Shown here piece by piece: positions 1,934 to 22,615 of a DNA stretch of 64,000 nt. A program made the translations under genes and the position numbers. This DNA comes from an uncultured bacterium. GTDB taxonomy: Bacteria; Cyanobacteriota; Cyanobacteriia; B231. The notes beneath the pieces were generated by a model. It was not told where the DNA came from, ran no database searches, and saw only the letters and a list, made by a program, of their open reading frames with translations. Numbering within the stretch: the first letter of the stretch is position 1; every line of letters begins with the position of its first letter. The stretch lies in assembly GCA_964536415.1 (NCBI GenBank), contig CAZHXN010000002.1, forward strand, positions 785-64,784, written 5' to 3'.

Positions 1934-1961
1934 CTAACAATTACCCCCTAACAATTACCCC
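1934..1961. repeat. Tandem duplication 2 x 14 nt (CTAACAATTACCCC) spanning the stop codon of the sensor kinase gene
   Basis: Direct reading of the sequence. The second unit contains the TAA (minus strand, 1955-1957) that ends the 1955-5437 ORF. Confidence 0.8.
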
Positions 1962-4900
1962 AGGGGGAACTCAACCGTGAAACAGGTCTGCATGGCTTGA
2001 CTCACCACGGTAATCGATCCCCCTAACAGTTCAACCCGACGTTTTACCAGCGTCAGCCCTAACCCTGTTCCCCCATGCTTCCAGCGATCGCCGCTCGGCA
2101 CTCGATAAAACTTATCGAAAATATAGGGCAACTCGGCGGTGGGGATTTCACTGCCCGTGTTAGTCACCGTAATCTGGATCACCGTCGGCATCGCCGTTGC
2201 GGCAACCGCGATCGTGCCGTTGGGGGGAGTATATTTACACGCATTATGAATTAATTCACCGATCGTGCGCTCTAGCATAAGGGGATCGGAGAGGAAGGGG
2301 GGTAAAGTTGCCTCCAGGCTGAGGCTGAGGGTTTGCTGTTGTTTTTTGGCCCGTTCCTGAAAGGCATTCACCCACGCAGGTAAACACTGGTCTAACTCAA
2401 CTGTGACCAGGGTAGGCAATTCCGTTCCCGCTTCTAGTCGCGAGAGATCTAAGAGGTCATTCACCAAGCCTAATTCTTGCTGATATTGCGATCGCATCAC
2501 GTCTAAATACTGGAAAGCGCGATCGGGCTTAATGCGTAACGTCTCGGCTTGCTCACTGAATAATCCTGGCTGCTCCAAAAATAACTGCAACATGTGCAGG
2601 GCACTATTCATATTCGATAGGGGCGTGCGTAACTCATGGGAAACCGTACTTAAAAAGTCATCCTTCAGTTGATTCAGTCGTTCCAACTCCCTAACTTGCG
2701 CGAGGGATGCCTGGTAAAGTCGTGCCTGTCGCAAGGCGATCGCGCACTGATTTGCAACTTGCTGCACTAAGCGAATATCCTGCTCTGTAAAGCCATAATG
2801 AGGCTCATTAATCACCCAAACATCTCCCAAAACCCCCTGATCAGTTTGCATCGGACAGGCAAGCGTTGCGACTCTGCCTCGCTGGGGATAAGGGGATAGA
2901 CTACAGTATTGAAAACACTGCCCTGCCAGTAATTGTTGATACCCGACGGCAAAATTCTGCATCCGCATCTTATAGTTACGGAAGGGCTGACTGAAGGTCG
3001 TATATTCGTATTTAATCGTGGAGGTTTGCGTCTCCAGATCATACAGTGCTGCATTACATCCCCTAGCCCCCAAAGCACGCGCTAGGGCCTCAACGGCGGT
3101 CTGTAGGATTTGTGCCTCATCGAGATGATCGCGAACTTGATCCGTGATGTGTTTAAGCGTGGCTTCAAATTCAAAGGCTTGCCGCAGTTGACGGGTACGT
3201 TCCTGAACCTCAGATTCCAAAGCTATATTAAATTTTTGAAGCTGTTGATAAAGCTCCGATTGTTGGATTGCGATCGCCACCTGATCGGCTAACTGCGTCA
3301 ACAATTCGACTTCTATCGGTTGCCATTGACGGATACTCGTACATTGCTGGACCACCACCAACCCCCAAAGGGAATTCGATGCTTGAGCGACCGTTGAGGG
3401 CATCAAGACCGGCACGATTAACTTACTGCGGACTGACCACTGTTCGATAATCTCAATTAAGTCAGGACTGAGGCCCAGATCGGGATCACGTATATCCACG
3501 ATGACCTGTACCTGTCCTTGTCGGTACAATTCTTGGGCCTCCACCGCGAAAAGCGCCAGGGGTAAAGATTTGCCGAAGACGGATAGGAATCCGGGTACAA
3601 CTGCCTCAGCAATCACAGTGATTGTTCCATTTTCCATTAATTGGTAGACAAGGACGCGATCGGCCTGGAGAAGGTGTTGGATTTCCGTAACCGTCGTGTT
3701 CAGGATCTCCTGAAGTTCTAAGGATTGTCGAATATGTTGGGTAATCGTTTTGATAAGACGTTCATGTTGAATGCGCTGTTGGAGAGTATGTTCTGCTTGT
3801 TTACGATCGCTAATATCAACGCCAATGCCCCAAGCCCCCCAGCCTTGAATCGGGAATTCATCCGAAATATTTGACCAGGAAATTGTCTTTCGAGTCCCAT
3901 CCTTACAGGTAATCTCCCACTCCCAGTTACGGTAATTATTTCCACGTCTCTGCCAAAGTGCTAGCATGGTTTCACGGTAAGCGGCATCTGGATAAAGCCA
4001 CGAAAAAGCTTGGGGATTATGGATAATCTCTTCGGCACTATAACCCGTGACCTTCTCACACTCCCGATTCCAGACAATTAACTGCCAGTTTTCGTCCACC
4101 GCATCTAACATCACAGGCATATTTTCTAAGATATGTCGGAGGCGTTCTTCATTTTGGCGTAAGGCTATTTCTGCCTGTTTAAGGTCGGTAATATCCCGCG
4201 CCAAAACTAACACAGTTTCTACACGGCCATCTGCATCAAACTCCGGTACCAATTGCGCTGACCAATATTGACGACCACCCTGATTAGTAGGAGTATAGTT
4301 TAATTGCTGATCTTTCCCCGTGGCGAAGACGCGATCGAGGGCTGCATTCCAGCTTGTGATAAAGTCTACTGGGAACAATAGCTCTTCGCTGGTCTTGTGT
4401 ATGAATTGGGCAGCAGGAATTGACAAAATTTGCTCAATTTTGGAATTGATATATAGAAATTCATATTGGTTATGCTCCTCCCCTATTTTTCGGGGCGACA
4501 AACGAGCAACAATATCTGGAATATGTTCAACCAATGCCCGAAATTCTTGCTCTTGACGTAAGAGTTTTTGCTCGGTTCGTTTACACTCAGTAATATCTTT
4601 GCTAATACAGAGGGCACAGGCTTCACCTTCAATATGAATTAATTGAGCCGACAGCAATGCGACTTTTTTCTCACCTCGCTTAGTTTGGTAATAGATCTCT
4701 CGATTTTTGAAATTATGTCTAGCTTTTAGATCGGGAAAAAACTGTTGCTGTTGCTTTAGATCGATCCAAAAATTGAGTTGATCTATCCGCTGACCAATGA
4801 GTTCTTCACGGGTATAGCCAAACAGTTCTAAAAAACAATCATTGGCCTCAATAATTTGGAGATCGCCCAGCCGGATAATCCCGATCGCATCAGGGCTAGC

Positions 4901-5437
4901 CCGAAAAATAGTGGAAAACTTAGCTTCCGATTGTTCCAGCGCAACCTGCATATGTTCAAAAAATTGCTGTAATTGCCAAGCCATTTGGGCACAGGATTGA
5001 CTGAGGGTATCAATTTCCGCGATCGGGTTGGGGGGATAATCGACCTTTCTGACTCCCGCTAACACCGCCTGACTCACCTGGCTCAGATAACGCCATGGCT
5101 GGGCTAGCTGATAACTTAACCACATTGCCAACGTCCCTATCCCCACTACCACCCCCAGATTGATTACCAAGAGGGGAGAACGAATATTGGCCACTTGCGC
5201 CTGTGCGATCGCAACGGCTATCTGCTCCGCTTCCGCCACCTGCCCCTGCATCAAGACCGCCTTGATCGTCTCACGGTCAGCCTGTAAAACGAACCACTCG
5301 ATGGTCGGGATCAGGATGACGATTAGCAACAGCAACGGTACCGTTAGCACCATCTGTAGCGGTAGGCGTCCCAGCAAGGGTGCCAATCGCCAGGAAAATC
5401 TGAAACAGGGTCGTGGGGAATGTTGAGGGACAGACAC
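1955..5437 (-). CDS. Multi-sensor hybrid-architecture histidine kinase (TM/HAMP, 3 PAS, 2 GAF, HisKA, HATPase_c)
   Basis: 1160-aa ORF. H-box DDFLSTVSHELRTPLSNM; G2 box GGTGLGLTLVKRRVELLGG; PAS-like segments (ASPDAIGIIRL..., ILENMPVMLDAVDENWQLIVWNRECEKVTGY); GAF-like segments (LELQEILNTTVTEIQHLLQADRVLVYQL; LDEAQILQTAVEALARALGA). Confidence 0.92.
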   Translation of the reverse strand: MSVPQHSPRPCFRFSWRLAPLLGRLPLQMVLTVPLLLLIVILIPTIEWFVLQADRETIKAVLMQGQVAEAEQIAVAIAQAQVANIRSPLLVINLGVVVGIGTLAMWLSYQLAQPWRYLSQVSQAVLAGVRKVDYPPNPIAEIDTLSQSCAQMAWQLQQFFEHMQVALEQSEAKFSTIFRASPDAIGIIRLGDLQIIEANDCFLELFGYTREELIGQRIDQLNFWIDLKQQQQFFPDLKARHNFKNREIYYQTKRGEKKVALLSAQLIHIEGEACALCISKDITECKRTEQKLLRQEQEFRALVEHIPDIVARLSPRKIGEEHNQYEFLYINSKIEQILSIPAAQFIHKTSEELLFPVDFITSWNAALDRVFATGKDQQLNYTPTNQGGRQYWSAQLVPEFDADGRVETVLVLARDITDLKQAEIALRQNEERLRHILENMPVMLDAVDENWQLIVWNRECEKVTGYSAEEIIHNPQAFSWLYPDAAYRETMLALWQRRGNNYRNWEWEITCKDGTRKTISWSNISDEFPIQGWGAWGIGVDISDRKQAEHTLQQRIQHERLIKTITQHIRQSLELQEILNTTVTEIQHLLQADRVLVYQLMENGTITVIAEAVVPGFLSVFGKSLPLALFAVEAQELYRQGQVQVIVDIRDPDLGLSPDLIEIIEQWSVRSKLIVPVLMPSTVAQASNSLWGLVVVQQCTSIRQWQPIEVELLTQLADQVAIAIQQSELYQQLQKFNIALESEVQERTRQLRQAFEFEATLKHITDQVRDHLDEAQILQTAVEALARALGARGCNAALYDLETQTSTIKYEYTTFSQPFRNYKMRMQNFAVGYQQLLAGQCFQYCSLSPYPQRGRVATLACPMQTDQGVLGDVWVINEPHYGFTEQDIRLVQQVANQCAIALRQARLYQASLAQVRELERLNQLKDDFLSTVSHELRTPLSNMNSALHMLQLFLEQPGLFSEQAETLRIKPDRAFQYLDVMRSQYQQELGLVNDLLDLSRLEAGTELPTLVTVELDQCLPAWVNAFQERAKKQQQTLSLSLEATLPPFLSDPLMLERTIGELIHNACKYTPPNGTIAVAATAMPTVIQITVTNTGSEIPTAELPYIFDKFYRVPSGDRWKHGGTGLGLTLVKRRVELLGGSITVVSQAMQTCFTVEFPLG

Positions 5438-6000: not shown

Positions 6001-6972
6001 CTATTCCCCCTGGCGCGATCGCTTTTGCCGCTCAATTTCCCGCTGCAACTGCTCAATCTGTCGCCGTAAGACCTCTGCCTCGCTGGCTGGGCGGGCCTCT
6101 GTCTCCACTGCGCCCTCAGCCCCGGCCTGGGGATAGTCCCCGGCACGAATCCGTTTGTATTCTGCCGAAGCGGCCCACTCCTGCAAATAGTGCACCCGCT
6201 CCACTGTAAACGGATGGGTCAAAAACGTCCCCTGGGACACATTGTTATACAGCAGGAATTTATAGACCTGGTTCAGACTGTCATTATCCAGATCCTGATA
6301 GCGATCGGCCTGACGCAGAAACTCCTCCAAACTGCATTCATGCAACCGACGGGCACTTCCCCCCGCTAGCTTCATCATCGTCTTAAACACCAATGGCAAA
6401 TCATCCGTCACGAGTAAGGCCGCACGATCGGCAGAGAGTTCCGCCTTGCGTAACCACTCATAAAATGCAAACACCAACCCCCGACTGACGATATTGCTAA
6501 TCCCAAAGGTCAAATCCCCAATAAAAAACGCTGCCTCCAACGCCCAGCGGGCCATCTGATTCAACGTCGTGTGCCCACATTTCACATGGCCCAGTTCATG
6601 GGCCAACACCATGCGCAACTCGGTATCATCCAGCAAATCCAATACACCCGTATTCAAAATTACCGACGGTTGTTCCTGCCCTAGGGCATAGGCATTGGCC
6701 ATTGGGTTTTGCATCACAAACAGGGCTGGTTCTGGGGTAATGTCCAGATCATGGACACACTCACGAAACAAGCGATAAAGACTGGCATACTGACGCGGCC
6801 CCACCTGGATGCCATTGCCCATGAAATAGACATAATTGGGCCGTTCCAGGAAAAATTCCATAAACTTTCGCGCCGCCGCCTCAAAACCGGGCAGACTCCG
6901 TAGGGCCTGCTCCGCCTCGCGATCGAGGGGATGGCGAAAGGCTTCACTGGAAATGCCAGGATAGCTAGGCAT
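6001..6972 (-). CDS. M48 family zinc metallopeptidase (apparently soluble, coiled-coil C-terminal tail)
   Basis: 323-aa ORF with HELGHVKCGH (HExxH) and a downstream ELSADRAA glutamate, as in M48. C-terminus EAEVLRRQIEQLQREIERQKR. Confidence 0.88.
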   Translation of the reverse strand: MPSYPGISSEAFRHPLDREAEQALRSLPGFEAAARKFMEFFLERPNYVYFMGNGIQVGPRQYASLYRLFRECVHDLDITPEPALFVMQNPMANAYALGQEQPSVILNTGVLDLLDDTELRMVLAHELGHVKCGHTTLNQMARWALEAAFFIGDLTFGISNIVSRGLVFAFYEWLRKAELSADRAALLVTDDLPLVFKTMMKLAGGSARRLHECSLEEFLRQADRYQDLDNDSLNQVYKFLLYNNVSQGTFLTHPFTVERVHYLQEWAASAEYKRIRAGDYPQAGAEGAVETEARPASEAEVLRRQIEQLQREIERQKRSRQGE

Positions 6973-6976
6973 CGCT

Positions 6977-7750
6977 TTACTCCCTTGCCTCGATATCCAA
7001 CAAGACCTGCACCCACGCCGGTGGGGCAGGGATCGAACTGCCCAAGCGCTCCAGCAACAACCAGGCTGCTAAGTGGACCACAAACAGATAAATAATGCTA
7101 TTGATCACCACCACCGTCACCGCGATCGTCTGAATCACCCAGAGGTCCGGTTGGGCTAATATCCCCAGTTTAGTAAAGATCCACTCCGCCAGGTTAGCAA
7201 TTTGCACCATTGAGTAGGCCCAAAGGTCATCCCCCAACAACAGCGACACCAGCCAGATGCGAAAGAAAAAGCCCACCGTATTCAGCAGCGTACCCAGGCC
7301 GATCGCAATCCACCAATTCACCGCATTCCGCCACAGCCACCCCAACAAAACCCCCAGCAACCCAAAAGGCACAATGAATAGAATGCTGCGCGTCGGTCCC
7401 ATCAACACTGACAAGAGTAACCCCGATACCAGGGTAGCCATCCACGTCGCTCGATGCCCCCAGCGCAGGTAAACCAGCGTGATCGGCAGGGGAAAAAAGA
7501 TCCGTAACAGGGGACCGATCGGAAAATAATAGTTAACCAGCCAAATCAAGCTGGCTGTACTGGCCAAAAATGCTGTTTCCACCAAACTCAGGGGGGCAGG
7601 TGCCGTCAGGTAAGGCTCAGCTAACGGCAGTGATACGGGGGCTGTTGGGGTTCCCGCAGACGGGGCAGCCGCACTGGGGGGTTCCTCATCAGGCCAGCGA
7701 TCGCTGGGCGACGCCAAGGGCATATCGCGACTGTCGGGGGACGAAGGCAT
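6977..7750 (-). CDS. DUF2232-like polytopic membrane protein
   Basis: 257-aa ORF with a Pro/Ala-rich N-terminus followed by multiple hydrophobic helices (LVETAFLASTASLIWLVNYYFPIGPLLRIFFPLPITLVYLRWG...). Only 4 nt upstream of the M48 gene on the same strand. Confidence 0.75.
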   Translation of the reverse strand: MPSSPDSRDMPLASPSDRWPDEEPPSAAAPSAGTPTAPVSLPLAEPYLTAPAPLSLVETAFLASTASLIWLVNYYFPIGPLLRIFFPLPITLVYLRWGHRATWMATLVSGLLLSVLMGPTRSILFIVPFGLLGVLLGWLWRNAVNWWIAIGLGTLLNTVGFFFRIWLVSLLLGDDLWAYSMVQIANLAEWIFTKLGILAQPDLWVIQTIAVTVVVINSIIYLFVVHLAAWLLLERLGSSIPAPPAWVQVLLDIEARE

Positions 7751-7778
7751 AGGGTCAGATCAGGCACTTGTGCGACGC

Positions 7779-8486
7779 TTAGGAGAGCAACAGGCGATCG
7801 AGGGCATCAGTATCGGGGATACACAGCACATCCCGTTCGCGTTGAATTAGCCCTTTTTTTTCTAACTTACTCAAGACCCGCGTCACCGTTTCCCGCGCCA
7901 GCCCACTTAAGCTACTCAGTTCCCGGTGGGGTAAGTTGGGGATCATGACCCCCTTCTCACTGGTTTGCCCCTGGCCATCAGCCAGGAACAGCAGAATATC
8001 TGCGACTCGTGAGGTACTATCCGACTCCCGTAACCGCAGCCGACGATTGACCTGCCGTAGCCGACGAGCCATCAGCTGGGCTAACCGGATCGCCGCTAGG
8101 GGTTCTGTTTGCAACATCTGGACAAAATCCTGGGCGGGGACATTGGCAATCACCGTAGGTGCCAGGGTAATCACATCCGTCGATCGCGGCACCGACTCCA
8201 GAGGAGCCATCTCCCCAAAGATTTCCCCCTTACCCAAAATATTCAGCGTCACTTCCTTACCTTCCAGGTTATAGGTCCGAATTTTAACCCAACCATCTAG
8301 GATGAAATAGACCGAACTCCCCCAGTCGTTTTCTAACAGCAGAATTTGGTTGGCGGGATGGCTGCGCACGACGACATGGGCCGTCGCCTTCTCGACAATC
8401 TCAGCAGGTAAGCCCTGGAAGAAAGTCGAATGACGGATCTGTTCTTCATTTGCGCGATGACTGCGAGAGGCGTGCCGATCTTCCAT
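7779..8486 (-). CDS. Crp/Fnr family transcriptional regulator (cNMP-binding domain + C-terminal HTH)
   Basis: 235-aa ORF. Beta-roll motif GKGEIFGEMAPL and HTH region HRELSSLSGLARETVTRVLSKLEKKGLI. Confidence 0.9.
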   Translation of the reverse strand: MEDRHASRSHRANEEQIRHSTFFQGLPAEIVEKATAHVVVRSHPANQILLLENDWGSSVYFILDGWVKIRTYNLEGKEVTLNILGKGEIFGEMAPLESVPRSTDVITLAPTVIANVPAQDFVQMLQTEPLAAIRLAQLMARRLRQVNRRLRLRESDSTSRVADILLFLADGQGQTSEKGVMIPNLPHRELSSLSGLARETVTRVLSKLEKKGLIQRERDVLCIPDTDALDRLLLS

Positions 8487-8864
8487 CTGGCGTTATAAGC
8501 ATTCAGGATGAGGTCTTAAACAAGCAATGCGATAGCTTTGCGACGCTGAAGGCGTATCTATAGATAGGCCCTGATAAGAGATAGGCCCTGATAGGCCCTA
8601 AACCCCACTCGACACCAGTGCCGAATCGAGGTTGTTCAGTTGGCGAACACCAGTCTAACCCGAAATCAGGCCAAAGCGCGTTAGGCTAGCGGCGACATCG
8701 CCCACCTGGGATTTGCAACCTGGGGCTATCCCCTCCTGCGCCTCCGCGACAAAATCCACCCCCCAAAAAAATTCACCCCCCCCAACCCGCATCCATTGTC
8801 TGTGAGTAACGTGACGCTAGACTGCTCTTAGCATACACTTTAAATTACAAGTGAACTGACCAAC

Positions 8865-8900
8865 ACCGACCAAGCGCCTAATACCGACCAAGCGCCTAAA
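8865..8900. repeat. Tandem duplication 2 x 18 nt (ACCGACCAAGCGCCTAAT/A)
   Basis: Direct reading. Intergenic. Confidence 0.85.
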
Positions 8901-9231
8901 CGTTGAAGGGGCTGCGCGTGGCCTCCTCCGGCGGCATCGGTTATCAGCGACAATACGAAAATAGGCTTGTCCCGAAATCTGGTTGCATCTAGAGAGGGGC
9001 CTCGCCCTGAAATCACCCTGATGGGTTGATACCCAATAGGAATGAAGTGATATGGACGCTGCACTCAGCCCCCTATCCCTTGCACCTTAAGTTAAGTCCC
9101 TGGAGGTTAGCCTGATTGAGATCTAGCCTGATTCGGTGAAGTCTGATTGAGGGACCCTCTGATCACAGATTAATTCGAAGGGGCCAATCTGGGTGAAGTG
9201 CGCTAGTGCGCTGTCAAGTTTAATGTGGGTC

Positions 9232-9300
9232 GGTTGGGTCAAACCCAATGCGACCTAAGCAGGTGAGTGTGTTCGGTCTCGCAAGCTCGACGCCATCTAC
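9232..9300. repeat. Dispersed repeat, copy A (GGTTGGGTCAAACCCAATGCGACC ... GGTCTCGCAAGCTCGACGCCATCTAC)
   Basis: Both end segments recur at 55957-55980 (GGTTGGGCCAAACCCCATGCGACC) and 56074-56098 (GGTCTCGCCCACTCGCTGCCTACCC), with a different-length interior. Confidence 0.35.
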
Positions 9301-9312
9301 AACCTGTTATTT

Positions 9313-9346
9313 TAAGCATGACGGTCTACTAAGCATGACGGTCTAC
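9313..9346. repeat. Tandem duplication 2 x 17 nt (TAAGCATGACGGTCTAC)
   Basis: Direct reading. Intergenic. Confidence 0.85.
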
Positions 9347-9513
9347 TAGGCTAATTAAGGTGCAGGGCGTTTGCTTGATCAGGCGCTCAGGCGCATCCAC
9401 CCCTGTTCAATCTAGTCATTGTTCAGTTATCAAGGTTACACTCATTGTCAAAATCACCGGATGCGATATGCGAATGGCATCGCCCCGCGCTCGCCCAGCG
9501 TTGCCCTTCTCAC

Positions 9514-9549
9514 CTGGACTCTTCCGGGTTACTGGACTCTTCCGGGTTA
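9514..9549. repeat. Tandem duplication 2 x 18 nt (CTGGACTCTTCCGGGTTA)
   Basis: Direct reading. Intergenic, about 100 nt upstream of the 9648 ORF. Confidence 0.85.
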
Positions 9550-9647
9550 GAAGATGCAGGCTGGTTTAGGCTGGCCCTGTTTACCCCTGGGAACCCAGCA
9601 TTGTCATATCCCCAAGCGCTCGACTTGATTGTCCCCTTGTCCGTTGC

Positions 9648-12644
9648 ATGCCCATTGGCTGCATTCCCGTTGGAGATTTCAGAGGTTCTACCGTGACTCC
9701 TCAGCAGGCCCAAGCCCAGGCACTGATCCACGAAATTGACAGTGTGCTTCACAAAGCTAGCCCTCGTTTACCCTGGGTCATGTCCAACGAAGACGCCCAG
9801 CAGCGTCAGCTATTGCACCAATTGCGGTCTTATCTGGTGACCTCCCTGCAAGTGTCGTCGCCGTCACCCTCGCTTCCAGAAGACCCTTCGCCTAGTGTCT
9901 CCACCAGCGACTTGAACCGCGATCGATCCCCCTTGGCCAATATGGGCCAACTGGATGCCATGCAACAAACTCTGCACGCCATGATGCAGGAGATGAACCA
10001 TCTGCGAAGTACGGTCCTGCAACCGTTGCAAGCCGATGTGGCGGGGTTACAGCAACAACGGGAAGCCCTCCGTCAGGAAGTGCAACAACTGGAAAGTCAG
10101 CGGCAAGCAGCGATCGCCGCAGCGACCCCAACGGCCCCAGACGCCCTCAGCCAGCAGGTCCTCCAGGAGGTGTTGCAACTACTGATGCAACGGCTTCAGG
10201 AAAATTTAAGTCAACAGATTAGCCAGCAGATTCACCAATCGTTCCAACGCTTGCAAGCGACCCTGCAACCGCCCCAGGACCTCTCCCCCGCCAGTGCCAC
10301 CACGGGGCTGTTGCCGGGGATGACGGCGGAACAGGTGCAAAACCTGGAAGCCCTCCAGTCGCGTGCGGATCAGGTGTTAACCACGATCGATACCACGTTG
10401 CGGGTTGTGTTTGAGTCCATGCAGCGCAATCTCGAAAGTTACCAGGATTCCCTCACCCGTGGGCTGGAACGTATGCATGGGCTAGGACAACAGAGTGAGG
10501 CGCAATTTGCCGCCCTTCTTAACCACTTGGCCCAGCGGCTAGGGCAAGAAGCCTCTGCCTATCTGAATGCATCCCTACAAACCCAAGGGTTGATTGCACC
10601 CGAAGCCCCTGTTGCACGGGAAGCCGTGCGCCCAAGCGGTGCTGCTGCTCCTGCCGCCTTACCTACGGAAGCGATCGCCGAAGAGGCCCTGCCCTTTGCT
10701 GGCTCAGAGTTAGGGAGAGGCCGTTCCGAAGTTTCCCTTTTCCCCACACCGTCCCCGGTTGCCAGGGCAACCCCGTCAGCCCACCGTTCTGAAACCCTGC
10801 AACTGGAAGATCTCGATCTGTCCGATTTCAACCTGGATGCCCTGGATACCAGTCTGATTGATGCCGAAGAGACTGATCTGGAGGCGTTCTCGTTGGAATC
10901 TGGCGTGCCAGAGACAGGGGCCTTAGACGTGGGGATTGAAGATCTGGGAGGCGATCTGGGGATTGCCGATCGCGAGGCCAAGCCAATGTCTCATGCTGCC
11001 CTGCCGACGGACACAACGACGGAAGCGGAGGCAATGGACTTCCTCAACCAATTAGCAGACACCTTTGATGCCCCTCCCCTCGTCCGGGAGGCTGAATCGC
11101 CCCCCCCCCCCGCACCCCCAACAAGCTGGACGGATAGCAGTACCACAGCCGAATTACGCGAACTGTATCAAAGCCTGTTCGGCTCCGATGAGTTTGCTGG
11201 CACCGCCCCCGTCGCCAGCCCTCCCCAAGCGGAAACCCCAGCGATCGCCGCCACGAGTCCTCCCACCCTGGACAATCTGTTTGGAGGACTGGACGCCACG
11301 ATCCATCCCGATAGTTTCAATCTCGACCTGTTAGAGACGGAGCCATCCCAAGCTGATGCCTTGTTGTCCGAGCGTGAGGCTACCCTACCGACGCGTCTAG
11401 AACCTGAGGCTGACCTGGGTGCTGATTGGGCCGATTTGTCCCTAGAGATGGACGACATTCGCGCCGGGTCTTCCCCGGAGGGTCGCCCCAGTTCTCTGGA
11501 AGACTTTTTCTTCCCCGAAGCCACCCCCGCAAGTTCTCCGACACCTTCCCCCGATGCGGCCCCGCCCGTCGAGGAGGAACGGCCCCTAGCCGCGATCACC
11601 GACGCCAAGGCCGAGGCGATCGCATGGCTGGACGAGGCAGCGTTGGAGCAGCTAAGTGAGCCAGCCACCGTGGAGCCGACTCCCCGTACCACCGCTGCCC
11701 CCGATCTCCCTGATTTAGATACTGATCCGTTCAATCTGGGCGCTCTAGCCGCAGATTTAGCCGCTGGGCAAGAGACAGCCACCGCCGGGACCGATCTGGC
11801 GGATCTCCTGGCCGACATCAGTGCTACGGAAGCCACATCCGCGAACATCCCCGCGATCGAGACGGGTGTGGTCAGTGCCAGCCTTGAAGATAGCTTTGAT
11901 GCTGCTGCCCCCGATGAAGATCTACTGGCGGCGGAAGACCCACAGACCACTGCCAGTCCCGACCTACTCCAACTTGACGACCAGACGTTGCAACAGTTGA
12001 GCGAGGATCTGTTCAGCCTGGAGTCCAATGAACTTGCCACTACTGGGGAACTACCGTTCGCGCCGCCTCCCCCAAGGGAAATCGCACCGCCATCGTCCCG
12101 GATGACGGCACCGCGTCCCGCGTCGCCCCAGGCAAATCGGTCCACACGCCAGGATGACGTAGGCCAACCAGAATCAACTTCTGACTTGGCCACCCAGCCC
12201 ACAGAGTTCAGTCTTGAGGCCTTCGCCGCTGATCTGTTTGGGGAGCTTGAGGTTGATGACCGTGAGGGCGATGCACCCGGTACGGCCATGCCGCCCTCCC
12301 TGGCAGAGCCAATGGCCTCCAGCCATACGCCGCTCTCAAGCCCAGAAACCCGTGCGGATCAGCTAGATACCGATCCCTCCCTGGCGGTTCTGGAGGATCT
12401 CTTTACCGATCCCGCCCCCCCTGATGTCACCCCTGGGGCACCCACCCCTGAGCCAGTGCCTGCTTCCACGCCCAAGCGTTTCTCCGGTGGAGACGCTCCG
12501 CGAACGGATAGTGGGTTGTTGGATGATCTGTTTGCCGATTTCGGTGAGCTAGATGTGGCTAGCAAGACGGCGGAGAACAATCTAGCCAGTTTCCAGGCGG
12601 AATTTCCCGTTTGGGATGACGATCCGGCAAAAAAAAAGTTCTGA
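9648..12644 (+). CDS. Large acidic protein: SepJ-like N-terminal coiled-coil domain plus ~600-aa Pro/Ala/Glu/Asp-rich disordered region with repeated D/E-L-F motifs; no membrane domain
   Basis: 998-aa ORF. Heptad-rich N-terminus (LQPLQADVAGLQQQREALRQEVQQLESQRQ). Segment ADQVLTTIDTTLRVVFESMQRNLESYQDSLTRGLERMHGLGQQSEAQFAALLNHLAQRL aligns colinearly with the N-terminus of the 20789-22615 protein. The start may instead be the GTG at 9693. Confidence 0.8.
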   Translation: MPIGCIPVGDFRGSTVTPQQAQAQALIHEIDSVLHKASPRLPWVMSNEDAQQRQLLHQLRSYLVTSLQVSSPSPSLPEDPSPSVSTSDLNRDRSPLANMGQLDAMQQTLHAMMQEMNHLRSTVLQPLQADVAGLQQQREALRQEVQQLESQRQAAIAAATPTAPDALSQQVLQEVLQLLMQRLQENLSQQISQQIHQSFQRLQATLQPPQDLSPASATTGLLPGMTAEQVQNLEALQSRADQVLTTIDTTLRVVFESMQRNLESYQDSLTRGLERMHGLGQQSEAQFAALLNHLAQRLGQEASAYLNASLQTQGLIAPEAPVAREAVRPSGAAAPAALPTEAIAEEALPFAGSELGRGRSEVSLFPTPSPVARATPSAHRSETLQLEDLDLSDFNLDALDTSLIDAEETDLEAFSLESGVPETGALDVGIEDLGGDLGIADREAKPMSHAALPTDTTTEAEAMDFLNQLADTFDAPPLVREAESPPPPAPPTSWTDSSTTAELRELYQSLFGSDEFAGTAPVASPPQAETPAIAATSPPTLDNLFGGLDATIHPDSFNLDLLETEPSQADALLSEREATLPTRLEPEADLGADWADLSLEMDDIRAGSSPEGRPSSLEDFFFPEATPASSPTPSPDAAPPVEEERPLAAITDAKAEAIAWLDEAALEQLSEPATVEPTPRTTAAPDLPDLDTDPFNLGALAADLAAGQETATAGTDLADLLADISATEATSANIPAIETGVVSASLEDSFDAAAPDEDLLAAEDPQTTASPDLLQLDDQTLQQLSEDLFSLESNELATTGELPFAPPPPREIAPPSSRMTAPRPASPQANRSTRQDDVGQPESTSDLATQPTEFSLEAFAADLFGELEVDDREGDAPGTAMPPSLAEPMASSHTPLSSPETRADQLDTDPSLAVLEDLFTDPAPPDVTPGAPTPEPVPASTPKRFSGGDAPRTDSGLLDDLFADFGELDVASKTAENNLASFQAEFPVWDDDPAKKKF

Positions 12645-12793: not shown

Positions 12794-14890
12794 ATGCCAG
12801 CGACCCTAGCCGATCCGCCTACGGGTGAAGGACGAATCGCGGTGTCTTCGATCGCGCCACCTCCCCAACAGGGAATCGTGCCAACCGATTGGTACCTAGG
12901 ACTGGATATTGGCACAACAGCCCTCTCGGCTGTGCTCTGTCATTGTCCCACGGGGGCCGTCTATCCCCTCTACTGGTGGGTAGCGGCTACCGATACCCCT
13001 ATCCCAGGCCAGCCTTGGCACGTTCGTGAAACGTCTCCCTCGGAGAATCGCGTCGCTCCTCGTCAGGGTCATCGCGCAGCGTCTTCGCCGGAGCATCGCC
13101 CAACTTGGCCCCCAACTTGGCCCCCAGTCCCTTGCTTCCGGTTACCTAATCTGGCCTACCTGACCGCCCAGCAACTGACCCAGCCCCCCCAGATGCCCAC
13201 CGCCATTGGCCTAATGGCCCAAATGGCTGCCCCCGGGGGAGACTACCCCGATCAACCACTGCATGAGCTAATCCACACGCTAGAACCCCATTGGCCCTGT
13301 GAGGAAGGGGGCCTTTCCCTCCACAACTACCTCCCGCTTTTGCACCTCGCTTGGCCCTACTATTCGCCCCAATCCCTGCGCTGGGAACCCCAACTCCAGT
13401 GGTCAGAGACTGAGGTTTTGCCCTTAGGGTGGTGTCAACAGACGCTACAAGCCCTCATTGGTAGCCTGTTAGACCCGCTGGTTACGACAATGCTGCCGAT
13501 GGGGAGGCTGCGGTGTGCGGCAGTGGGGTTAGATAGTCAAACCTTCCAGACGGCCCTGCGTCACCTGACAGGGGTCTGTGTGAGTGGTTATATCCACCAC
13601 TCGGATGTTTATGCCTACAATGTGCGGGAAGCCATTTTAGCCGCCGGGTTAGTGGCACAGCCCGATCAAATTGCGTTGGTTGAAGGCCCGATCGCGGCAC
13701 TGTTAACGGAATTACAAGGACTGCAACAAACGCGACGGTATGCCGACGACGGCACGACCCCCCTCTCCCAAGCTGGGGCCTGGACCTGGGACGGCTTAAC
13801 CCTGGTCATTGAAGCTGGGGCGAGCCACACGGATTTACTGCTGAGTGATCTGCCTGTCCCCCTCTCAACCCTAAGCTATCAAGATTTCTGGCTACGGGGG
13901 TTGGACTATGGGGGCGATGCCCTCGATCAGGATATTTTCTGCCAGTTGCTGTTACCCCAACTGTCTACACGCCCCCCCGAATGGCAGGTGTTAACTGTGC
14001 CCATTGTTGGTGAACCTGATCGGGAGCGTCGTGCTCGGTTGCAGCAGCAGCTTGCTAATACGTCCCTAGGCCGGGTTTGGCTCCAGTTTGCCCAACAGAT
14101 TAAGTGGCAGTTGGTCCAGGCGGCTGGGCCACAGGCGTTCGCGCCGCCTTCCCAAGGGGGAATCGCGCCCCAAACCTTTACCCTGGGAGACACGATCATC
14201 CATCTCAGCCCCCATGACTTAGAAATCCAGATCTTCCTGCCCTATTTGCAACGCCTGAATCGTGAGTTAAATGCCCTTCTCAGCCAAGCAGGGGTGGTGC
14301 CTGCCCAAATCCGGCAGGTCATCTGTACGGGGGGAACGGGAGCGATCGGGGCCATGACCCGATGGCTACGGCAAAAGCTACCCAATGCCACGATTCTCCA
14401 GGATACCCAGCCCAACCCTGCTCAACCGAGTTGTAGTCGCGTGGCCTATGGCTTAGCCCTGGTTTCACTGTATCCCCAGGTGATTGCTACCGATCGCCAG
14501 ATCTATAGTGACTGTTTCCTTCTGCTGGAATTGCTGCGCACGGTGCCGACTGAACCCGTCTCCTTGACCCAAATCCTGATAGGACTGGCTCGTCGGGGCA
14601 TTAATGTCAATACCTGTCGATCGCGCATCCAGCAATTGCTTGCGGGCCACCTGCCCCAGGGGCTTGGGCTAGACGATCGCCACCACGTCTGGCTGAGTGC
14701 AAGCTCCCAGCAACACCCGTTTTACACCACGATCGCCACGGCCCCCCTCTTCCAGACCCTTGGCCCTGACACGTATGTTTTGAATGGGGAGCAGGCCCAG
14801 GTTTGGCACGATTACCTCACCCAGACACTAACAGGTAAGCATCAGCTACTGGACGAACCACTGGCGGTCAGTGGATTGCCTTCGCCGTGA
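12794..14890 (+). CDS. Highly divergent Hsp70/actin-fold (ASKHA) ATPase-like protein with unknown C-terminal domain
   Basis: 698-aa ORF. Phosphate-1-like motif WYLGLDIGTTALSAV, phosphate-2-like LVIEAGASHTDLLL, adenosine-like VICTGGTGAIGAMTRWLRQKL. Otherwise little resemblance to canonical DnaK. Confidence 0.75.
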   Translation: MPATLADPPTGEGRIAVSSIAPPPQQGIVPTDWYLGLDIGTTALSAVLCHCPTGAVYPLYWWVAATDTPIPGQPWHVRETSPSENRVAPRQGHRAASSPEHRPTWPPTWPPVPCFRLPNLAYLTAQQLTQPPQMPTAIGLMAQMAAPGGDYPDQPLHELIHTLEPHWPCEEGGLSLHNYLPLLHLAWPYYSPQSLRWEPQLQWSETEVLPLGWCQQTLQALIGSLLDPLVTTMLPMGRLRCAAVGLDSQTFQTALRHLTGVCVSGYIHHSDVYAYNVREAILAAGLVAQPDQIALVEGPIAALLTELQGLQQTRRYADDGTTPLSQAGAWTWDGLTLVIEAGASHTDLLLSDLPVPLSTLSYQDFWLRGLDYGGDALDQDIFCQLLLPQLSTRPPEWQVLTVPIVGEPDRERRARLQQQLANTSLGRVWLQFAQQIKWQLVQAAGPQAFAPPSQGGIAPQTFTLGDTIIHLSPHDLEIQIFLPYLQRLNRELNALLSQAGVVPAQIRQVICTGGTGAIGAMTRWLRQKLPNATILQDTQPNPAQPSCSRVAYGLALVSLYPQVIATDRQIYSDCFLLLELLRTVPTEPVSLTQILIGLARRGINVNTCRSRIQQLLAGHLPQGLGLDDRHHVWLSASSQQHPFYTTIATAPLFQTLGPDTYVLNGEQAQVWHDYLTQTLTGKHQLLDEPLAVSGLPSP

Positions 14891-16275
14891 TGGGTAGTCT
14901 TAACCCACTTCAGCCGTTTCGGTCGCACGGAAATGCGCATGGCCATCGTGGCAATCACCAGCATCCAGTGCATCAGGTAGACGTTTGCTTGTAAGGTTTG
15001 CCAGCCTTGAAGCCAGAAGGGTTGGCGTTGGGTGCGGCGTAGGCCCGTCATCATACTGAGCATCGAAAAGCCGATCGCGAGCGTCACCAGTGGACTCAGA
15101 AGGGGAGGACGGTTCCGCAGGTAGGCCATCAGTAGATCGGGCACGGCTGCCGTTGGCAGGAGGTACTGGATAAACCAGAACATCGCCAAATCGTAGGTTT
15201 TGCGGGGGCCAAGTCGATTCTGGATGAGCGGTTTCCAATAGTCGAGGTAACGCTGGTAACCGCCCTCGGCCCAGCGATTGCGCTGATGCCATAACCCGAT
15301 CGCCGTCGTCACCCCTTCTTCAAGTACCGCCACATCATTCAGGAACTCAATATCCCAGCCTTGCACATGCAGGTGCAAGGTCAAGTCAAGATCATCCGTA
15401 ATGGTCGCTTCATTAAACCCCCCACAGGACTCCAACGCCTCCCGGCGAATGAATTGGCCATTGCCCCGCAGTTCCCCAATCCCCCCAATGGCAATCCGCT
15501 GTTGTTGCACGCAGCTATCGAGGGCCATTTCCGCTGCTTGACACCGGGTCCAGAAGTTATGCTGGGCATTGGCGATCGCCTTACGAACCTGTACGGCCCC
15601 CACCCGTTCCTGGGTAAACAAGGGCAATACCCGCCGCAGGAGATCCGCCGGGACCTGGGCATCCGCATCAAACACGGCTAAAACCTCGCCCGCCGCCTGG
15701 GGCCACACCTGGTTGAGGGCACCCGACTTCCCTCCACCCGCGCCAGGTCCCCGGCGAACAATCCGTAAATGGCTGTACTGTTGGGCCAACTGTTTCAGGA
15801 TGACGGGGGTTTGATCACTGCTATTGTCATCAATGATCCACAGATCGTAGCGATCGCGGGGATAGTCCAGTTGGCAGAGAGATTCCACCAGTCGGGCAAT
15901 CACAGCCTCCTCATTCTTGGCCGCCACGAGCAACGAGACATAGGGACAATTCTCAGGCACATCAATTTCCAGGGGCAAGGGGGCCACATGGGGCCGCACC
16001 CGCAACACGCGCAAGGCATGAACCCCCATCAAGGTGGTTAGCCCCAACACCAACCACAGCCCCCATGAGACGGAATGGAGGGCGATCGTACTCCCCCAAA
16101 CGACCGTCAAGAGTACGGCAGCTTTCTGACGACGGCGATCCGACCGTGGGCCAGCCGTTGCCGTTGGGTCAGGCATAGGCGGAACGCTGCCTGCGGATAT
16201 CGACTCTTCTGAAGTCAGCGACTCCGGGTCAATCACACTGTAGGAATGGCTTTCGGACCAGGATGGCTCCGACAT
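14842..16275 (-). CDS. Family 2 glycosyltransferase, membrane-embedded processive type (D, DxD, QxxRW)
   Basis: 477-aa ORF with IIDDNSSDQT, GKSGALN, FDADAQ and QRNRWAEG, plus hydrophobic helices at the N- and C-termini. Size and architecture are compatible with, but do not prove, a cyanobacterial MGlcDG-synthase-type or exopolysaccharide synthase. Confidence 0.85.
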   Translation of the reverse strand: MSEPSWSESHSYSVIDPESLTSEESISAGSVPPMPDPTATAGPRSDRRRQKAAVLLTVVWGSTIALHSVSWGLWLVLGLTTLMGVHALRVLRVRPHVAPLPLEIDVPENCPYVSLLVAAKNEEAVIARLVESLCQLDYPRDRYDLWIIDDNSSDQTPVILKQLAQQYSHLRIVRRGPGAGGGKSGALNQVWPQAAGEVLAVFDADAQVPADLLRRVLPLFTQERVGAVQVRKAIANAQHNFWTRCQAAEMALDSCVQQQRIAIGGIGELRGNGQFIRREALESCGGFNEATITDDLDLTLHLHVQGWDIEFLNDVAVLEEGVTTAIGLWHQRNRWAEGGYQRYLDYWKPLIQNRLGPRKTYDLAMFWFIQYLLPTAAVPDLLMAYLRNRPPLLSPLVTLAIGFSMLSMMTGLRRTQRQPFWLQGWQTLQANVYLMHWMLVIATMAMRISVRPKRLKWVKTTHHGEGNPLTASGSSSS

Positions 16276-17017: not shown

Positions 17018-17392
17018 ATGCCCATTAATCAACCTAAGGCCGCAGCACCCGAAAAGGTCATGATCTACCAACCCTACTACCAGGGGAGTCGGCGGAATGC
17101 CCTGCCCTATGCTATCAGCCTCTATCAGGAAGGGTCCCTAGAAGGTGAGCGGCGCATTGAGGGAGGAGAGAGCATTCCTTTTATTGCTTCCTGGGAAGTG
17201 ACCTCACTGCCGCTACAAATGACCCGATGCCGGGTGCAGTTTGATGGTAAGGCTGATCTCAGCTACCAAACGTCGATGAAGAGTCATGAACTGATTGACT
17301 TTCTGATTGATGCCTTTGTCCATTATCGCCGGAACCAGGTGGCCGACTTTCCCCCTGCCTTTTACCGCAAGCTGCTGAATATGGAAGCTTAG
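17018..17392 (+). CDS. Hypothetical protein (124 aa), no recognisable domain
   Basis: ATG-initiated ORF with ordinary, not low-complexity, composition. No competing ORF of similar quality. Confidence 0.55.
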   Translation: MPINQPKAAAPEKVMIYQPYYQGSRRNALPYAISLYQEGSLEGERRIEGGESIPFIASWEVTSLPLQMTRCRVQFDGKADLSYQTSMKSHELIDFLIDAFVHYRRNQVADFPPAFYRKLLNMEA

Positions 17393-20788: not shown

Positions 20789-22615
20789 CTAGCGAGCTGT
20801 TTTCGGAGACGTCTGACTCTGGCCCTTGAGGCGCTCAAAGCTAAGGGCAACTACCCCAAGCGTCACCAGGACAACGCCAAGAATTTGCAAACGTTGTAAG
20901 GTTTCCCCAATCAAGATCAGGGCGAGGAGGGCAGTAAAGGCAGGCCCAGTTGCCCCAACGATCGCCGAGCGTGCGGCCCCGGCCATTCGGATACCAAAAT
21001 TGTTGGACAAGTACCCCGCCAGCGTTGTCACCGCCAGCAACAGAACCCCGATCACTAAATTGGACCATTGGTTGCCGTTGACCCGAACCGCCCATGTACT
21101 GGGTAGGGGTACCAGAGCCAAGATCAATCCACTACAGAGGAAGATCGTGGCAAACTGGACCAGCGTCACCGCCACCGCATTCAGCTTGCGCGTACTGCTC
21201 TGGGTATAGATGACAAAAAAGGCAAAGGCAATCCCCGACCCGATCGCCGCTGCTAACCCGATCCCAGACAAGTCATTGGCACCGGTCCTTCCCCCCGACA
21301 GGGCGATCATGCCCACCCCCAGCAAGACAACTGCCGTAATTCCCAGCCGGAATAGGGTGGGGCGATCACCAAAGAAAGCCCAGGATAGGAAAAGCGTCAC
21401 GATCGGGTAGATGAAAAAGATGGTGATGGCGATTCCCGTCGGAATTTGCCCCAGGGCAATATAAATGAACAGTTGCGACAGAAAAAGGCAAAAGCCACTC
21501 CCGAATACAGTCCGTTGCAAAGTGCGATCGCGGGTGGTTAAAAATTGCCGCAGATCTCGCCAAACGTGGGGATAGAACCACTGGGCCAACAGGGCCAGCA
21601 CGGGCAGCACCAACACCACCCGCAGGAAGAGAATTAACACCGAATTCCCAAAGCTGGGTGAAATGATGCCTCCCCATTGGAACAATCCCACAATTGACCG
21701 CTCCTTGAGAATCACCCGCAGGACCACATTCTGCAACGACAGGAAAAAGGAGGAGAGCAAAATAAGCAGCAGTCCCACTTGAACCGGGGAGAGACGTTGG
21801 GTTGCCGAGGCTGGCGTTACCGACGGAGCAGGGTGTTTTGGCCGTTCCCGCTGCGGCAGGGTCTCCGGCTCAGCCAGGGGAGGGGAAGGATCAGGCCGAG
21901 GCGGATAACTTCGGGACGAAGGGGCCGGTGCGGGAGGGGCTGCCCAGTCGATCGGCTGCCGATCGCGGGGGATCGCAGCCAGCCATTGATCCTCCAGGGG
22001 GGCAAACCGGGAACTGGTGGGGAGCTTGGCCACCTCTTCCTCCAGCACCGCATTGAGACGGTTGACCAGAGCCGTTAGAATAGCTTCCCCCTGTTGCTCC
22101 AGGTTGTGCATCCGGCTGAGTTGCTGCGACAGCGCACTCTGGTAGCTACTGAGATCCTGCTCTAAGGATTGAAACGTGGTGTTGAGGGTGGCATCCAGAG
22201 ACGCGATCATTTGATAGGCCCGATCGCTATACCCATTACTGTGGACAGCGCTAGCCGATGTATTGGTGGGGGCCGGGGTTTGTCCGGCCAGTTGGTGCAG
22301 TTCTTCGCTCAGGCGATGTTGGAGGTGAGCTGCGATCGCCTGGGCCAGTTTTTTCGCCCACTGTTGTTGTCGGAGTAATTCCTGGCGGGTAAAAGCCTCC
22401 TGATGCTCGGCCCGGAGGGTTTCAATTTCGCGGACGAGGCGCTCCTTTTCCAGTTGCAACCATTGAATATCCTGGGCCAGTTGGGCCACCAGGCTTTCCT
22501 GCAATTTTTGCAGTTCTTGAGTCATGGCATTTAAGGCCGTATCTGCTGCCCGTGCCGCCGCCGGACCCGACAGACTACCACTCCCACTTCCCAATCGCTG
22601 ATTGGATTGCGCCAT
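20789..22615 (-). CDS. sepJ: SepJ/FraG-like septal protein: N-terminal coiled coil, Pro-rich linker, C-terminal DMT/EamA-type permease
   Basis: 608-aa ORF. Residues ~25-200 are heptad-rich (LQKLQESLVAQLAQDIQWLQLEKERLVREIETLRAEHQ). The linker is PPAPAPSSRSYPPRPDPSPPLAEPETLPQRERPKHPAPS. The C-terminal ~330 aa contain about 10 hydrophobic helices in two EamA-like halves. This tripartite architecture is the published hallmark of SepJ. The gene symbol is architecture-based only. Confidence 0.65.
   Translation of the reverse strand: MAQSNQRLGSGSGSLSGPAAARAADTALNAMTQELQKLQESLVAQLAQDIQWLQLEKERLVREIETLRAEHQEAFTRQELLRQQQWAKKLAQAIAAHLQHRLSEELHQLAGQTPAPTNTSASAVHSNGYSDRAYQMIASLDATLNTTFQSLEQDLSSYQSALSQQLSRMHNLEQQGEAILTALVNRLNAVLEEEVAKLPTSSRFAPLEDQWLAAIPRDRQPIDWAAPPAPAPSSRSYPPRPDPSPPLAEPETLPQRERPKHPAPSVTPASATQRLSPVQVGLLLILLSSFFLSLQNVVLRVILKERSIVGLFQWGGIISPSFGNSVLILFLRVVLVLPVLALLAQWFYPHVWRDLRQFLTTRDRTLQRTVFGSGFCLFLSQLFIYIALGQIPTGIAITIFFIYPIVTLFLSWAFFGDRPTLFRLGITAVVLLGVGMIALSGGRTGANDLSGIGLAAAIGSGIAFAFFVIYTQSSTRKLNAVAVTLVQFATIFLCSGLILALVPLPSTWAVRVNGNQWSNLVIGVLLLAVTTLAGYLSNNFGIRMAGAARSAIVGATGPAFTALLALILIGETLQRLQILGVVLVTLGVVALSFERLKGQSQTSPKTAR

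Follow-up and report, generated by a model that had tools for sequence, protein, structure and literature searches.

Two consecutive genes were found to be the two halves of one ancient and conserved evolutionary unit. They lie on the forward strand, at 9693-12644 and 12794-14890, in a 64,000-nucleotide stretch of contig CAZHXN010000002.1 from an uncultured cyanobacterium of the B231 lineage; the whole stretch is called the window here. The unit comprises an N-terminal head, a coiled coil of the SepJ type, an acidic motif-bearing tail, and an ATPase resembling the nucleotide-binding domain (NBD) of Hsp70. Here a coiled-coil protein of the septal type is joined to an Hsp70-fold ATPase, and the unit is a candidate for an energy-using partner in the assembly of septal proteins. 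In multicellular cyanobacteria, both the integrity of the filament and communication between cells depend centrally on SepJ, a protein whose coiled-coil domain has no signal peptide. The same module was found here in a soluble protein as well, coupled covalently or genetically to an ATP-binding Hsp70-fold domain. The two genes are as follows.

9693..12644, forward strand: gene for a coiled-coil and acidic-tail protein (the scaffold), probable GTG start, 983 amino acids (aa)
12794..14890, forward strand: partner gene for a 698-aa ASKHA-fold, Hsp70-NBD-like ATPase, assigned from AlphaFold2, Foldseek and natural fusions

Among 5.8 billion proteins searched, 51 relatives of the scaffold protein were recovered, all annotated as hypothetical, and 13 of them ran into a C-terminal homologue of the 12794-14890 protein with 31 to 40% identity over nearly its full length. 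A relative was also present at 223 loci in species-representative genomes, of which 80 were examined and 61 were informative, that is, had 6.5 kb or more of sequence downstream from the start of the scaffold gene. An ATPase-like gene was directly downstream of the scaffold gene or fused to it in 59 of these 61 loci (by tblastn, 20 fused and 39 split). None was detected at the other two, L073 (Tychonema bourrellyi) and L080, where the ATPase could have been truly lost, relocated or diverged. The Nostocales contained 485 matching proteins at E<=1e-10, with the fused form throughout, and fusion appears to be the rule in this order; among the 120 matches listed, all bar one partial record were ~1,270 to 1,420 aa long (e.g., Cylst_3667). 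The split point varied inside the tail, with several hundred tail residues carrying motifs of the Asp-Leu-Phe (DLF) type lying N-terminal to the ATPase in P0064, P0075, P0103 and others. The two genes are thus one unit, because their products are fused in the 13 homologues and in the Nostocales matches and are encoded side by side in nearly all other loci. The initial annotation had described a stand-alone scaffold with the downstream ATPase as a possible client, a description that this coupling does not support.

The longest open reading frame (ORF) of the scaffold gene ran without interruption from ATG 9648 to 12644 on the forward strand (998 aa), and residue numbers below follow this 998-aa frame unless stated. 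The true start is probably GTG 9693 rather than ATG 9648, because the family consensus N-terminus (M/V-T-S/P-Q) coincides with that codon, many homologues begin there (several with GTG), the 100% identical database copy P0001 (983 aa) does the same, and an AGAGG sequence lies ~6 nt 5' of it. Pfam and NCBIfam scans of the scaffold protein matched no family, and the protein has no transmembrane segment (maximum 19-residue hydropathy, 0.7), in agreement with its earlier description as permease-less. A PADLOC scan assigned it to no defence family, with ZorA as the one, marginal coiled-coil match (E=0.001), and PDB sequence searches with the N-terminus and its profile returned just generic coiled coils (Max, ZapB, and Fos). 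No publication on the coiled-coil/tail/Hsp70-like family, nor a characterised orthologue, was found in literature searches; the protein had likewise not been recognised as a described one at first reading.

The N-terminal part of the scaffold and the SepJ-like protein encoded elsewhere in the window contain the following features.

9693..9842, forward strand: family-specific N-terminal head, residues ~16-65, QAQALIHEIDSVLHKASPRLPWVMS..QQRQLLHQLRSYL, conserved in family alignments
9948..10244, forward strand: coiled-coil segment 1, corresponding approximately to SepJ-like residues 20-113, profile match of 36.6 bits
10362..10556, forward strand: coiled-coil segment 2, corresponding to SepJ-like residues 132-196, profile match of 65.9 bits (E=2e-22)
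20789..22615, reverse strand: SepJ-like paralogue, 608 aa, with a two-part coiled coil, a short Pro-rich linker and an EamA/DMT permease

The 20789-22615 protein, which gave two EamA Pfam matches in its C-terminal half (E=3e-21) and is rich in Gln and Leu in its N-terminal region, has a layout that agrees with the published domain scheme of SepJ, namely, a short N-terminal sequence, a coiled-coil domain with two motifs, a linker and a permease (PMC6463045, PMC12096826). BLASTP aligned residues 109-303 of the scaffold protein with residues 28-196 of the SepJ-like protein at 30% identity, with a composition-adjusted score of 72 bits and an E value of 5e-17. A hidden Markov model (HMM) of distant family members, from which the window protein and its six closest relatives had been left out, matched the SepJ-like protein at 96.4 bits (E=1.2e-31, single target) in two colinear segments, 20-113 and 132-196; 1000 residue shuffles of the SepJ-like N-terminus scored at most 9.5 bits with the same HMM. 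Given the gap between the HMM score and the shuffles, and the composition-adjusted BLASTP result, sequence comparison proves that the resemblance to the SepJ coiled coil is one of homology and not of coiled-coil composition. The initial annotation had proposed that the first ~300 aa align colinearly with the SepJ-like protein. Homology and colinearity were borne out, and both peptide pairs that had been quoted as examples fall within the BLASTP alignment; the extent was not, since just residues ~101-303 take part and the head is separate. The coiled-coil module was present in no further ORF of the window.

The head (residues 16-65) is strongly conserved and family specific, and it lies outside the SepJ alignment, i.e., it is absent from SepJ. 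Its residues L26, I30, L34, L41, R53, and L63 are invariant in family alignments, and it also contains a near-invariant RLPW motif. The family profile over coiled-coil segment 1 gave weak matches to leucine-zipper and ZapB coiled coils. Segment 2 contains the most conserved motif of the family, RMHxLGQQ(G/S)E, which as a search pattern recovered the 223 genomic loci. The two segments match the "two coiled-coil structures" described for SepJ (PMC12096826, PMC6463045).

SepJ (FraG, Alr2338) and the scaffold protein therefore share two homologous, colinear coiled-coil segments followed by a long low-complexity region, and the named members of both come from filamentous cyanobacteria. They differ in that the scaffold, unlike SepJ, has an extra conserved head and is joined to an Hsp70-like ATPase. 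Instead of the Pro/Ser/Thr-rich linker of SepJ, the scaffold has an acidic tail with conserved acidic-aromatic motifs, and a C-terminal DMT/EamA permease is missing from it. Of the three SepJ-defining features tested, the scaffold thus lacks two, the permease and the Pro/Ser/Thr-rich linker; on its domain content, it is therefore paralogous to a single domain of SepJ and is not itself a SepJ.

The remainder of the scaffold protein is a long tail in which short conserved islands are set in variable sequence. The tail, its C-terminus and several islands that are kept across the family are listed below.

10638..12641, forward strand: acidic, disorder-like tail, residues 331-998, delimited by composition, charge and islands
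10689-10709, forward strand: conserved island LPFAGSE
10803-10868, forward strand: conserved island LEDLDLSDFNLDALDTSLIDAE
11037-11057, forward strand: conserved island DFLNQLA
11142-11201, forward strand: conserved island ELRELYQSLFGSDEF
11487-11519, forward strand: conserved island SSLEDFFFPE
11703-11753, forward strand: conserved island DLPDLDTDPFNLGALAA
11892-11930, forward strand: conserved island SFDAAAPDEDLLA
11976-12026, forward strand: conserved island DDQTLQQLSEDLFSLES
12222-12242, forward strand: conserved island FAADLFG
12390-12410, forward strand: conserved island LEDLFTD
12567-12608, forward strand: conserved island TAENNLASFQAEFP
12630..12644, forward strand: conserved basic C-terminus AKKKF plus stop, from family comparison

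Residues 331-998 are rich in Ala, Pro, Leu, Asp, and Glu, with 134 Asp and Glu residues versus 29 Lys and Arg residues and a net charge of -105. In a charge-hydropathy plot the region falls on the disordered side, and no segment of it is hydrophobic, in accordance with its earlier description as a Pro/Ala/Glu/Asp-rich, acidic disordered tail. Among the seven closest orthologues, mean identity was 0.83 in the N-terminal region versus 0.60 in the tail. The tail nevertheless has 14 islands that are at least 90% conserved in these orthologues; together they make up 25% of the tail and hold 17 of its 27 Phe residues. Several islands are kept family-wide, from Leptolyngbya-like genera to Nostocales, in an unchanged order: P-x-A-G-x-E-L; LEDLDLS; LDFLNQL; ELDEFYxSLFG; Y-x-x-A-x-P-(D/E)-E-x-L-L; L-x-L-D-x-x-T-L-x-Q-L-S-x-D-L-x-x-L-E; DLF repeats, which vary in number; and a terminal (E/Q/A)KK(K). 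This last sequence ends most unfused members and is kept in some fusions as SEKKN just before the ATPase domain.

The pattern [DENSQ]-L-F occurred 7 times in the tail against an expected 1.03, and none of 5000 shuffles reached 7. The tail repeat had the consensus F-T-L-E-G-(L/M)-(D/E)-D-L-F-G-D-x-P over 323 occurrences. The seven motifs named in the initial annotation were located within a few bases of the positions given there, among them YQSLFGSDEF (~11158-11193), LDNLFGGLD (~11268-11294), LEDFFFPE (~11494-11520), SEDLFSLE (~11998-12024), AADLFGELE (~12219-12251), and LEDLFTDP (~12387-12410). The claim that D/E-L-F motifs recur was supported by the enrichment, but the seven do not represent a single repeat; they comprise at least three kinds of island as well as true repeats. 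As judged from sequence, the tail has the hallmarks of a disordered region that bears short linear motifs, and the multivalent docking scaffold that had been suggested is a reasonable hypothesis. The tail is a well-defined bacterial case of conserved short linear motifs that follow one another in a set order within a disordered acidic region. On the opposite strand, a 373-aa antisense ORF rich in Ser, Ala, Arg, and Gly (11168-12289, reverse strand) lies wholly within the tail-coding region; most likely it is not a gene but merely reflects the GC-rich sense strand with its biased composition.

An entirely compositional account, in which the resemblance to SepJ is a generic coiled-coil or Gln/Leu-rich bias and the tail a fast-evolving spacer with chance motifs, is scarcely credible. 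The N-terminal region is indeed Gln/Leu-rich, and its profile weakly matches unrelated coiled coils (Max and ZapB). This account was rejected on the composition-adjusted BLASTP result, the shuffle control with its two-segment colinearity, the ~7-fold enrichment of the motifs, and the conservation of tail islands between distant genera.

The 12794-14890 protein gave no match in a Pfam scan, nothing in a PADLOC scan, and a faint DnaK match in a sequence search. Its AlphaFold2 model, built from a 43-sequence alignment, had a mean predicted local distance difference test (pLDDT) value of 82.7 and a predicted template modelling score of 0.86. When the model was compared with the PDB by Foldseek, the best 50 matches were all NBDs of Hsp70, DnaK, BiP, or Hsp110 (probability, 1.0), with target-normalised TM-scores of up to 0.66 and ~12% identity. 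The final ~140 residues were modelled as a helical domain in the place of the Hsp70 substrate-binding domain. The model thus identifies the protein as an ASKHA-fold, Hsp70-NBD-like nucleotide-binding protein and not a canonical chaperone.

Across the ATPase family, the phosphate-1 motif LGxDxGTT, the adenosine motif C-T-G-G and the Glu of (V/L)-E-x-x-I-A-A, which corresponds to the position of DnaK E171, were conserved. The phosphate-2 position, which is Asp in Hsp70, actin, and MreB, was variable (window residue 340; Ser in 13 of 43 members, Asn in 8 of 43, Asp in some, and Glu in the window protein). The partner therefore resembles the NBD of Hsp70/DnaK in fold, phosphate-1 motif, catalytic-Glu-like residue, and adenosine motif, and it differs in its ~12% identity, its lack of a substrate-binding domain and lid, and its unconserved phosphate-2 Asp. 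The family profile gave weak matches to DnaK, Sse1, and PilM chains. Among the 43 members, weak Pfam matches were to PilM_2 in 30, to HSP70 (PF00012) in 14, and to MreB in one; PF00012 had no match in the window partner itself, and most members fall under the Pfam threshold for HSP70. None exceeded the curated threshold for PilM (PF11104), for which the best E value among the 43 members was 6e-5 and the window protein had no match. The DnaK1-DnaJ3-GrpE system associated with the cyanobacterial pilus, a canonical Hsp70 system, is unrelated (PMC12288463).

The initial annotation had also raised the possibility that DLF peptides dock on the downstream ATPase. In an AlphaFold2 model of residues 812-1665 of the natural fusion P0009, the ATPase folded confidently and the whole tail had a pLDDT of ~30 to 45. 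By per-residue confidence, all seven motif-type sites of the segment were below 50 and showed no strand pairing, and the sole structure in the tail was a six-residue helix, LENLDN, just before L-F. Motif density per 100 aa of tail was 0.79 in fused, 0.85 in unfused, and 0.69 in Nostocales proteins. Docking on the ATPase in cis was accordingly not borne out, the model being a weak negative. The notion that the tail motifs substitute for covalent tethering of the ATPase was ruled out by the equal density in fused and unfused proteins. The lack of cis docking in the model and the fusion-independent density weakly suggest that the motifs address partners other than the ATPase.

These results also bear on a rather improbable alternative, drawn by analogy with tandem WH2 nucleators or the ParR-ParM pair, in which the two proteins would form an actin-like cytoskeletal system: the ATPase would polymerise, and the oligomeric coiled-coil protein would bind several ATPase monomers through its tandem DLF motifs and nucleate or anchor the polymer. 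Actin-fold proteins commonly bind short amphipathic peptides, and the DLF motifs are repeated, amphipathic and followed by a short predicted helix; the partner moreover has the ASKHA fold, with weak affinities to PilM and, in one member, to MreB. However, the best structural matches of the partner are Hsp70 NBDs and not polymerising actins, neither cis docking in AlphaFold2 nor a dependence of motif density on fusion was seen, and a 1:1 covalent fusion would be unusual for a nucleator and its monomer.

The 51 relatives included named members from Trichothermofontia (the closest, at 70% identity), Leptolyngbya, Trichocoleus, Stenomitos, Pantanalinema, Elainella, Prochlorothrix, and Nodularia, and every named family member belongs to a filamentous cyanobacterial genus. 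The labels of the 80 loci examined were likewise filamentous cyanobacteria or unresolved metagenome-assembled genomes. Nostocales proteins were mostly labelled hypothetical or uncharacterised, with a few generic labels of "Hsp70 family protein" or "Molecular chaperone." When 1.84 billion representative proteins were searched with a profile of the first 300 residues, 730 clusters at 50% identity were matched, 457 of them at E<=1e-30; none of the 730 carried a functional annotation, and in nearly all of the 150 matches listed the module was at the extreme N-terminus. Family proteins were 800 to 2,700 aa long. Six of them, P0261, P0270, P0336, P0345, P0374, and P0375, were 2,100 to 2,700 aa long, which exceeds what a head, coiled coil, tail, and ATPase need, and these may have much longer tails or extra domains. 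As a lead only, the family may be among the filament-specific hypothetical proteins of Stucken et al. 2010 (all1765, alr0202, all2344, and alr4863).

A permease-less SepJ-like protein is already known as a concept from SepI (Alr3364), which is described as having N-terminal coiled coils and a "linker-like" region without a permease (PMC12096826). The possibility that the family is SepI, and the scaffold protein thus an orthologue of a known protein, therefore deserves consideration but is unlikely. SepI is built on the same architectural concept, interacts with SepJ, ZipN, SepF, and FtsI (PMC12096826, PMC12288457), and has reported homologues in many filamentous strains that are non-heterocystous (PMC12669612); filaments that have lost it fragment and have defective nanopores (PMC12096826, PMC12288457). 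On the other hand, SepI is 521 aa long in Anabaena and 497 aa long in Nostoc azollae and has no reported ATPase partner (PMC12421839), whereas the present family spans 800 to 2,700 aa and is fused to the ATPase in Nostocales, at ~1,350 aa (~1,270 to 1,420 aa in the members listed). The SepI literature examined made no mention of an Hsp70-like domain or partner, and SepI homologues have been reported in unicellular Synechocystis and Synechococcus PCC 7002 (PMC12669612), whereas no named member of the present family is unicellular. Because of the lengths of 521 and 497 aa against fusions of ~1,350 aa, and because of the absence of an ATPase from the SepI papers, we think that SepI is a different, possibly related protein, set apart by length and description.

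The overall best explanation, to which we give about an even chance of being right, is a cytoplasmic, oligomeric scaffold of the septum or divisome with an ATPase of its own. The coiled-coil/tail protein would be cytoplasmic, because it lacks both a signal peptide and a transmembrane segment and has an ATP-requiring partner. It would oligomerise via the SepJ-type coiled coil, and at the septum between cells this module would associate with SepJ-type complexes or with the divisome. The flexible acidic tail could act as a multivalent tether that recruits partner proteins through its short motifs, and the ATPase could provide a nucleotide-dependent switch or remodelling activity at the septal site. 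SepJ self-interacts and is multimeric, having been isolated mainly as a tetramer (PMC12096826), and SepJ, SepI, and SepT are recruited to the septum via the divisome and interact mutually (PMC12096826, PMC12288457). Because coiled-coil septal proteins behave in this way, a septal or divisome scaffold is the most economical explanation. With an ATP-binding partner, the SepJ-type coiled coil is presumably cytoplasmic in this family, which would therefore bear on the topology and assembly of SepJ.

Acidic polar hubs of the HubP/FimV type offer an analogy for the layout: they combine a localisation module with a very long acidic cytoplasmic region of motifs or repeats and are thought to recruit several clients. 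The scaffold protein differs from them in lacking a LysM domain, a transmembrane segment, and the C-terminal domain of FimV, in having a SepJ-type coiled coil as the putative localisation module, and in belonging to a unit with its own ATPase. SepJ's coiled-coil domain is said to be required for septal localisation, as reportedly found by Mariscal et al. 2011 (Mol Microbiol 79:1077).

Several points weigh against a septal scaffold powered by an ATPase. The sole ground for placing the unit at the septum is the homology of its coiled-coil module, so that the assignment is a putative one. The SepJ coiled coil has been argued to be periplasmic (PMC12096826, PMC6463045), and if so, a cytoplasmic paralogue would be unable to pair with it directly. 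A SepJ permease gene lay within 8 kb in 0 of the 80 loci, and the linkage seen in the window was not kept outside its clade. Because the phosphate-2 Asp position is variable, many members of the ATPase family may hydrolyse ATP weakly or not at all, and some of them possibly only bind the nucleotide. Finally, the AlphaFold2 model weakly indicates that no ordered contact forms between the tail motifs and the ATPase. In a more specific and improbable version of the scaffold, the unit would be an Hsp70-like machine dedicated to SepJ-type coiled coils: on the cytoplasmic face it would co-assemble with those of SepJ (and of SepI or SepT) and drive, with ATP, their assembly, remodelling, or threading into the septal complex. 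If true, this would provide a mechanism for placing a coiled coil that has no signal peptide, and it would add a new ATP-dependent component to the biogenesis of cyanobacterial cell-cell junctions.

The genes that flank the unit upstream and downstream include the following.

7779-8486, reverse strand: Crp-family regulator, from Pfam, divergent upstream neighbour
6977-7750, reverse strand: DUF2232 membrane protein, from Pfam, divergent upstream neighbour
14842-16275, reverse strand: GT2 glycosyltransferase, PgaC/cellulose-synthase-like, convergent with the ATPase gene

A Crp-family regulator was upstream and divergent in 43 of the 80 loci and a DUF2232 protein in 20. The arrangement of the two also occurs in Cylindrospermum and Trichothermofontia sichuanensis and extends from Leptolyngbya-like genera to Nostocales; in the complete genome of T. 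sichuanensis, gene order equals that of the window. The 7779-8486 regulator is not NtcA, and its best models, CRP and PtrA, were both under the cut-off. Across the 80 loci, no conserved linkage was found to SepJ, EbsA, GT2, ParA, or DRTGG genes.

This neighbourhood bears on a further alternative, which we consider rather improbable: that the unit is part of the apparatus for type IV pili or gliding motility, which in filamentous cyanobacteria forms rings beside the septa, with the ATPase as a PilM-like adaptor. Like PilM/FtsA-type adaptors, which bind short peptides of their partners, the ATPase has an ASKHA fold, with the weak PilM_2 similarity in 30 of 43 members and a PilM chain among the weak profile matches. 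The divergent Crp-family regulator is conserved, an EbsA homologue lies 2 kb downstream in the window genome, and a DnaK system is known to bind the pilus motor (PMC12288463). The PilM matches are, however, far under the curated thresholds, and the structural neighbours of the partner are Hsp70 NBDs and not PilM or FtsA. Outside the window genome, the EbsA linkage was not kept in the other 80 loci, and no pil gene was adjacent. No CRP-type site of the E. coli consensus (TGTGA-N6-TCACA) was found in the 1.2-kb upstream region, the single match in the window being at chance level, and the N-terminal module is related to SepJ and not to any pilus protein.

The putative EbsA counterpart is a 124-aa ORF (17018-17392, forward strand) that corresponds to a T. 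sichuanensis gene with the Pfam family T4P_EbsA, that of the type IV pilus-associated protein EbsA; a Pfam scan of the ORF itself gave no match, the library presumably being without a T4P_EbsA model. The crp-like and scaffold genes are separated by an unusually long non-coding region of ~1.2 kb (8487-9692), and a long gap of ~800 bp occupies the same place in Cylindrospermum. The window, this region included, gave no Rfam or tRNA match. The Crp regulator and DUF2232 genes form, together with an M48 peptidase gene, a reverse-strand block (6001-8486) divergent from the scaffold gene. Upstream of this conserved block lies a gene for a 1,160-aa multi-PAS/GAF sensor histidine kinase (1955-5437, reverse strand), which has the same position in T. 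sichuanensis. The ATPase gene and the convergent GT2 gene overlap by 49 nt at their 3' ends (14842-14890). A gene for a ParA/MinD-type P-loop ATPase that is extended by ~120 aa at its C-terminus (19636-20769, forward strand) is convergent with the SepJ-like gene, 20 nt away, and this pairing of ParA-like and SepJ-like genes is also present in T. sichuanensis.

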